Source of the DNA: Escherichia coli
Lineage (GTDB): Bacteria > Pseudomonadota > Gammaproteobacteria > Enterobacterales > Enterobacteriaceae
Strand: one strand, 5' to 3'
Assembly (NCBI RefSeq): GCF_003334335.1
Contig: NZ_QOWQ01000145.1
DNA: 848 bases
How positions within the stretch are numbered: the first letter of the stretch is position 1; each line of letters starts with the position of its first letter. The notes under the pieces were generated by a model that saw only the letters and a list, made by a program, of their open reading frames with translations, searched no databases and was not told where the DNA came from. This document shows, one piece after another, positions 1 to 848 of this stretch. The translations under genes were made by a program, and so were the position numbers.

Positions 1-848
1 CTTTTCGCGCCGGTGTGTATTCCGGCTCCACCTGTCTGGCCAGTTGCTCCACCGTCAGCCCGCACTGCGCAAGCCACGCCCGGCTTTCACTGCTCACGCG
101 GTCTGCCCGGATTTCTTCCTCCAGCCTGTCCAGCAGCCGCACCAGTTCAGCCGGGAACACCACGCCGTGGCCGTTCTCACTCCCTTCCTGCTGGAGCGTC
201 TCTGCCAGGCTGCGCCGCTGCGCTTTTTCCCGCTCGCCGTTCTCTGTCTCGACCCGGATGAGCGGCGTGAAGCTTCCCGGCTCGTATACCGTCTGGATAC
301 GTGTGGTGTCAGTCTGCACCGTCGTCAGCCTGTCTCCGTCCCAGCCATACCACGTCACCTCCGGTTTACGCGACAGCGACATCCACCCCGTCAGGTCACG
401 CTCCCGCCGCCAGACCCGTTTTGCCATTCGCCGTCCCAGCGGGTCGTAGAGGTAGCGGCTCTCGACCAGTGGCTCGCCATGCTGTATCCGCGTGTAGAAC
501 ACCAGGCGGTGCTGGCTGTCGTAGTGGTAGTGGTGGGTCCGCTCGTCGTCCGTCCGTATCACACCCGCCGGGATGCGGTCCGTCTTCTCCGTCAGCCTGC
601 CGTATTCATCGTGGCGGTAGACATAGTGCGCATCCTCCGCGATGCGGTTATCCGGCCACACTGTGAGTGTACTGTCCGGGTGCAGCTCCGGGTCCGGCAG
701 CCGGTTGCCCGCCGGGTCCGTGGCATACGGGATGCGGATGTCCAGGTCTGGTGCGAGGGTGCGCACACTCTCCAGCCTGCCCGTGGCGCTGTAGCCGTAT
801 TCCCGCGTCTGTCGCGGGCCGCTGATGCGCACCAGGTCGCCGTTGTCA
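1..848 (-). CDS. rhs: Rhs-family YD-repeat core protein, internal fragment (partial at both ends; enterobacterial RhsA/B/C-type core; the variable C-terminal toxin domain is not in the window)
   Basis: The reverse complement read from + coordinate 847 gives 282 sense codons with no stop, ending at + coordinate 2. The window therefore sits entirely inside a longer ORF. The translation contains YD-repeat motifs: [10 protein letters not shown] (residues 16-25), [14 protein letters not shown] (75-88), [12 protein letters not shown] (107-118), [13 protein letters not shown] (131-143) and [10 protein letters not shown] (166-175). The 3' part ([97 protein letters not shown]) matches my recollection of the E. 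coli Rhs core shortly upstream of the core-terminating PxxxxDPxGL motif. Family assignment is from memory, not a search; 'rhs' is a family-level symbol and the paralog (rhsA/B/C/D-like) is unresolved. Confidence 0.88.

Follow-up and report, generated by a model that had tools for sequence, protein, structure and literature searches.

An 848-bp Escherichia coli contig very probably represents an exact repeat common to the rhsD and rhsE cores

The DNA analysed here, hereafter called the window, is a stretch of 848 nucleotides from Escherichia coli. On its minus strand, frame 1 of the reverse complement runs without a stop through all 848 bases and encodes 282 amino acids, all of which align to the NCBIfam equivalog model NF041261, 'RHS element core protein' (window aa 1–282, model positions 875–1156 of 1261, E 7.1e-187, 623.7 bits; the curated cutoff of 2000 bits is meant for the whole protein, and the window is a fragment, hence the score below it). 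The features of the window are as follows.

1 to 848, minus strand: internal segment of an Rhs core open reading frame, predicted to be part of the YD-repeat shell (open frame, NF041261 match, identity to K-12)
1, no strand: gene-distal end (3' in the sense of the gene) of an exact rhsD/rhsE repeat; the adjoining outside base is a mismatch
2 to 241, minus strand: charged stretch, codons 203–282, lacking a YD-repeat signature (from the translation; outside PDB coverage, inside the RHS_core model)
848, no strand: gene-proximal end (5' in the sense of the gene) of the exact rhsD/rhsE repeat; the adjoining outside base is a mismatch

Judged by family membership, the encoded segment would belong to the shell of YD repeats in which T6SS-delivered Rhs effectors enclose their C-terminal toxin. 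The PDB sequence matches are to T6SS Rhs proteins, namely Tse5 (8cp6) and the Salmonella bongori Rhs core (8qjb/8qjd), whose late YD shell is homologous to window aa 55–202 only. Both are distant from the window (E 1e-9 to 5e-5) and leave aa 203–282 uncovered; this charged stretch may be an insertion particular to E. coli-type cores. A Pfam scan of the window translation finds RHS_repeat weakly (best E 0.028). In full K-12 RhsD, TIGR01643 YD_repeat_2x reaches E 1.8e-47 and Pfam RHS_repeat is significant within the N-terminal 500 aa. The preliminary description of this DNA had assigned it to an Rhs core and put it upstream of the 3' end of that core, and this is borne out both by the NF041261 match and by the gene-sense end of the window, which falls 314 nt (∼105 codons) before the core/tip boundary. 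The Rhs-associated core domain TIGR03696 lies outside the window, which stops ∼105 codons earlier.

Open reading frames of 82–144 aa on the plus strand were rejected as antisense artefacts of a coding region with 65% G+C; it is the minus frame that has the match at E 7e-187. An Rfam scan of both window strands, with E values up to 1, found no family.

Two places in the K-12 MG1655 chromosome (NC_000913.3) match the window with 100% identity. The first is rhsD (b0497; 525873–526720, CDS nt 2613–3460, RhsD aa 872–1153), which is accompanied by ybbC and by the orphan ylbH/ybbD. The second is the rhsE pseudogene (b1456; 1528327–1529174, nt 426–1273 of the core remnant), which is accompanied by ydcD and differs from rhsD in both toxin tip and immunity gene. 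As direct repeats, the copies are 1,002,454 bp apart. K-12 RhsD is complete: it covers RHS_core (NF041261) positions 1–1261 with 2787.7 bits against the cutoff of 2000, with DUF6531 at aa 46–123 (E 1.8e-18) and the Rhs-associated core domain TIGR03696 at aa 1181–1258. It has a trace match to PAAR (E 0.11), and there is no vgrG upstream of rhsD. The K-12 rhsE remnant covers RHS_core model positions 738–1261 only (1158 bits, below the cutoff of 2000) and carries TIGR03696 at aa 448–525. Small genes are annotated downstream of both, ybbC after rhsD and ydcD after rhsE, and are putative immunity genes. The window has no difference from rhsD over its 848 bases, but it is not assignable to rhsD alone.

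The other K-12 cores, RhsA/B/C(F), belong to the same family and are collinear with the whole window without gaps, but they are only 77.7–77.8% identical to it and have no more than 23 nt in a row in common with it. This divergence is predicted to be too high for these cores to collapse with the window contig or to recombine with it efficiently. The window, 100% identical to rhsD and to rhsE and 77.7% identical to rhsA, rhsB and rhsC, belongs to the RhsD-E subfamily, a name from the nomenclature of the Hill laboratory for cores ∼22% divergent from rhsA/B/C, as cited in a passage of PMC2935791.

The rhsE locus takes very different forms across strains. We compared K-12, EJN001, 300709, 720632, AST81, VN 2017.04.02CC, Res13, ECOR29 and EDL933. 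Relative to EJN001, K-12 rhsE has cleanly lost 4,432 bp, and the junction shows 3 nt of microhomology (∼NC_000913.3 1527902; K-12 extract L003 5903–5905, EJN001 extract L014 2569–7003). The lost sequence comprises all of vgrG plus the initial ∼2,187 nt of rhsE, and the sequences on both sides are 100% identical to EJN001. Of 5,426 complete genomes, 488 (∼9%) have the K-12-type junction, and in K-12 the window copy lies 425 nt downstream of the truncation point. EJN001 retains the ancestral, undeleted locus with a full-length rhsE that contains an internal stop. Strain 720632 has an intact vgrG-rhsE together with an intact rhsD, and the exact window is found in both. In EJN001, 720632 and EDL933, vgrG lies directly upstream of full-length rhsE. 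Of the two loci, rhsD is the complete gene, with a DUF6531 N-terminus, full core, toxin tip and the putative immunity gene ybbC, and rhsE varies by strain from complete with vgrG (720632) through complete with a stop (EJN001) to 5'-truncated (K-12, ∼9%).

Two further arrangements were observed at the rhsE locus. Strain 300709 (extract L016 11775–13364) has a second, independent deletion that spares vgrG, joins a short DUF6531 fragment directly to alignment core position 612 and leaves only 652 nt of the tract. AST81 (L024 11361–22687) and ECOR29 (L019 2389–10848) each have two full-length RHS core genes in tandem, with the immunity-like genes dsORF-e4 and dsORF-h1, and with ISAs1 (H-repeat) remnants between and after the RHS genes.

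Depending on the strain, then, the window is part of both a full-length gene and a fragment. The preliminary description had set these as alternatives between which the window alone could not decide. The second half of that statement holds, as the same 848 bases occur in a complete and a truncated K-12 gene; the either/or itself was misframed, as the contig represents at least two loci. The same description had leaned towards a main rhs gene on the grounds that ∼850 bp of core is long for an orphan. That lean does not survive, since the K-12 rhsE remnant spans the whole window without any upstream core. The length argument also fails against orphans: ybfO, downstream of rhsC (extract L025 6135–6880), covers 88% of the equivalent region (window-equivalent positions 102–847), and yibJ, downstream of rhsA (extract L027 7208–7362), covers its last 156 nt (positions 692–847). 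Because ybfO retains ∼1.06 kb of core, orphans are not always limited to the extreme 3' end. The only K-12 orphan that misses the window is the rhsD-linked ylbH, whose ∼250–280 nt of core (83% identity) start 35 nt beyond it. The core fragments of K-12 orphans thus vary widely in length.

Neither K-12 copy of the window is itself a displaced orphan rhs tip: rhsD is a main gene, and rhsE has no main gene upstream. rhsE is not an orphan module, because it arose by deletion of vgrG and its own 5' half. Recombination between main and orphan rhs genes occurs in Salmonella. Under the C-terminal displacement model of Jackson et al. (2009; PMC2935791), displaced orphan tips carry core fragments of variable length that are homologous to the main core and can recombine with it. 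K-12 rhsE differs from these in being a deletion derivative of a once-complete vgrG-rhsE that does not lie downstream of a main rhs gene.

Copies of this core are common. Megablast matched the window in 3,823 of 5,426 complete E. coli genomes, with a median of 3 places per genome and a maximum of 9, which puts numbers to the earlier expectation that genomes carry several near-identical cores. The best place is ≥99% identical to the window in 1,483 records. Right junctions at ≥99% are of D type in 1,744 records and of E type in 2,538, among ∼3,598; these counts imply at least ∼680 records with both types, a figure that does not equate to the 848-bp repeat, as the final 100 nt of tract sequence lack the necessary specificity.

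The limits of the window coincide with the limits of identity between the two K-12 genes. The alignment of K-12 rhsD with rhsE spans 1,577 nt without gaps and has 69 mismatches, none of which falls within the window; the flanks differ at 36 of 415 and 33 of 314 bases. The bases directly outside both window ends are mismatched (rhsE extract L003 6327 and 7176; rhsD extract L002 6873 and 7722), which makes the window the maximal exact match of rhsD with rhsE. The distal boundary recurs in strain 720632 and in the comparison of EJN001 rhsE with K-12 rhsD.

The same unit recurs in independent assemblies. The exact 282-aa product is indexed in 39 blocks of a public assembly collection, and in 36 of these the longest contig is <2 kb. 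Among the 10 places listed for this product, seven are contigs of exactly 848 bp. One, the ENA MEGAHIT contig k141_1233448 (848 bp), is identical to the window and was seen in at least 20 samples; the remaining six stand-alone 848-bp contigs have 1–3 SNPs relative to it. The three longer records have the 848-nt unit at the end of a scaffold, behind a string of Ns. We infer from the 848-base source, and from ends that fall exactly on repeat boundaries, that the window is a whole contig. Identical copies would be inseparable to a de Bruijn-graph assembler, which would emit one small contig ending at the first mismatch on each side. De novo 454 assemblies of K-12 have contig breaks at Rhs elements, including rhsD and rhsE (PMC3045373).

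The six contigs with SNPs come from NCBI draft genomes. Their SNPs are synonymous and the exact 848-bp size is kept; the differences are either common to both copies, or belong to a bubble popped by the assembler.

The identity of the two copies is itself unusual. When 69 mismatches were placed at random on 1,577 sites in 200,000 trials, no clean run of ≥848 appeared and the longest was 381. Compared along the entire gene, K-12 rhsD and EJN001 rhsE are a mosaic, with identical runs at rhsD CDS positions 1–248, 460–1005, 1007–2135 and 2613–3460, and the patches between them have 3–12% differences per 100 nt. In strain 720632, rhsD and rhsE are identical over 685–2448 (1,764 nt) and again over 2613–3460 (848 nt), and in region 685–2130 these paralogues have common variants that are absent from K-12 rhsD and EJN001 rhsE. 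AST81 rhsD matches the gene at its own rhsE locus over nt 1–1586 (extracts L022 2380–6669 and L024 11361–15578). In four rhsD alleles the final 314 nt of the core are the same, and the differences from the window number 0, 14, 49 and 66 sites; the part of the core next to the tip seems to move together with the toxin/immunity pair.

We considered whether AST81 rhsD had copied its own rhsE-locus gene across the window as well. It had not: the identity is confined to nt 1–1586, and the window region resembles the ECOR29 allele.

These observations bear on what the contig represents. It could have been taken from a single full-length main gene, rhsD, with no second copy in the genome, a reading that agrees with the annotation of most best matches as rhsD or 'RHS element core protein', and with the few complete genomes that have the window at one place only (ECCWS199 and D53-1 are examples). 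We regard this as distinctly unlikely, because both window ends coincide to the base with rhsD/rhsE mismatch boundaries, and because 848-bp contigs recur independently although contigs would not end there in a single-copy region. It is very unlikely indeed that the window comes from a truncated remnant or orphan of the K-12 rhsE type in a genome where no intact gene carries it. The identical sequence is certainly present in the K-12 rhsE pseudogene, but every sampled genome with a K-12-type remnant (K-12 derivatives) also has rhsD with the identical tract, and a lone copy would again fail to give an 848-bp contig. With ends that are repeat ends at two loci, and with recurrence in independent assemblies, the window is very probably the 848-bp core segment identical in rhsD and rhsE, collapsed into one contig that represents both loci, its identity probably the product of gene conversion. 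That repeated cores collapse in short-read assemblies had been anticipated before this analysis; the window appears to be such a collapse itself.

Two other origins of the identity, strong purifying selection on the shell and a simple recent duplication, have next to no probability in our view. The segment does belong to a conserved structural core, as selection would have it. However, the flanks contain 36 synonymous and 22 non-synonymous codon differences between rhsD and rhsE and the 282 codons of the window contain none of either kind. Protein-level selection is no explanation for the identity, because synonymous changes, which it does not remove, are absent from the window and present in the flanks. 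The region moreover tolerates change, as other rhsD alleles differ at up to 66 of 848 sites. A recent copy of the whole gene, for its part, would not leave 9–10% divergent patches between identical runs, and neither selection nor duplication accounts for the common variants in the 720632 paralogues that other strains are without. The window's identity amid 9–10% divergent flanks most likely reflects RecA-type gene conversion between the two cores, to judge by the pattern of sequence differences.

More broadly, we propose that repeated homologous exchange would shape these genes, by gene conversion within genomes and allelic replacement between strains, with the tip-proximal end remaining bound to its locus. 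The other rhsD alleles compared for the direction of conversion in K-12 are each mosaic themselves, and it could be the flanks, rather than the tract, that are the imported parts. Jackson et al. (2009) judged recombination of cores between loci to be infrequent (PMC2935791); the rhsD/rhsE pair looks like an exception, among fewer than 10 genomes sampled. We see the case as evenly balanced for a stronger proposal, that conversion between rhsD and rhsE across 1 Mb is frequent and ongoing, so that core interiors are homogenised within each genome and the last ∼314 nt stay locus-specific. If this is true, core sequence says little about which loci are orthologous.

The tract also has consequences for chromosome structure. 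The window is the only long perfect homology between K-12 rhsD and rhsE, and as the copies are direct repeats 1.0 Mb apart it is a likely site for RecA-dependent rhsD × rhsE crossover. Such recombination has been reported: in an E. coli × Salmonella Hfr cross, it circularised a donor fragment of ∼957 kb (PMC9551528), in line with the earlier view of Rhs cores as recombination substrates. That crossover would have been located inside these 848 bp. The tract is thus a probable crossover site for the experimentally seen megabase-scale duplications and excisions between rhsD and rhsE.

In practical terms, an 848-bp contig of this kind is not assignable to one locus. Treating it as a single gene puts variant calls, gene counts and toxin-repertoire typing off by at least one copy. 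This gene family is well known from the best-studied of bacteria, and the window, very probably an assembly artefact, goes back to a repeat that is known too. The mosaic pattern is a small addition on the concerted evolution of Rhs cores and leaves the current understanding of Rhs systems unchanged.

Three minor observations concern other parts of these genes. Across all sampled rhsD alleles, the last 314 nt of the core have 0 mismatches and the interiors differ by up to 8% (K-12 rhsD extract L002 7722–8035, and the equivalents in L015, L017, L021 and L022). Strain 720632 (extracts L029 2641–6921 and L028 4389–8612) and AST81 should yield further collapsed contigs from their other identical runs. 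Finally, strain E2863 (NZ_AP018802.1 1848663–1848862) has an rhsE-type right junction at 100% in a gene annotated as rhsD; either the gene was named by similarity and not by locus, or its flank has been exchanged.
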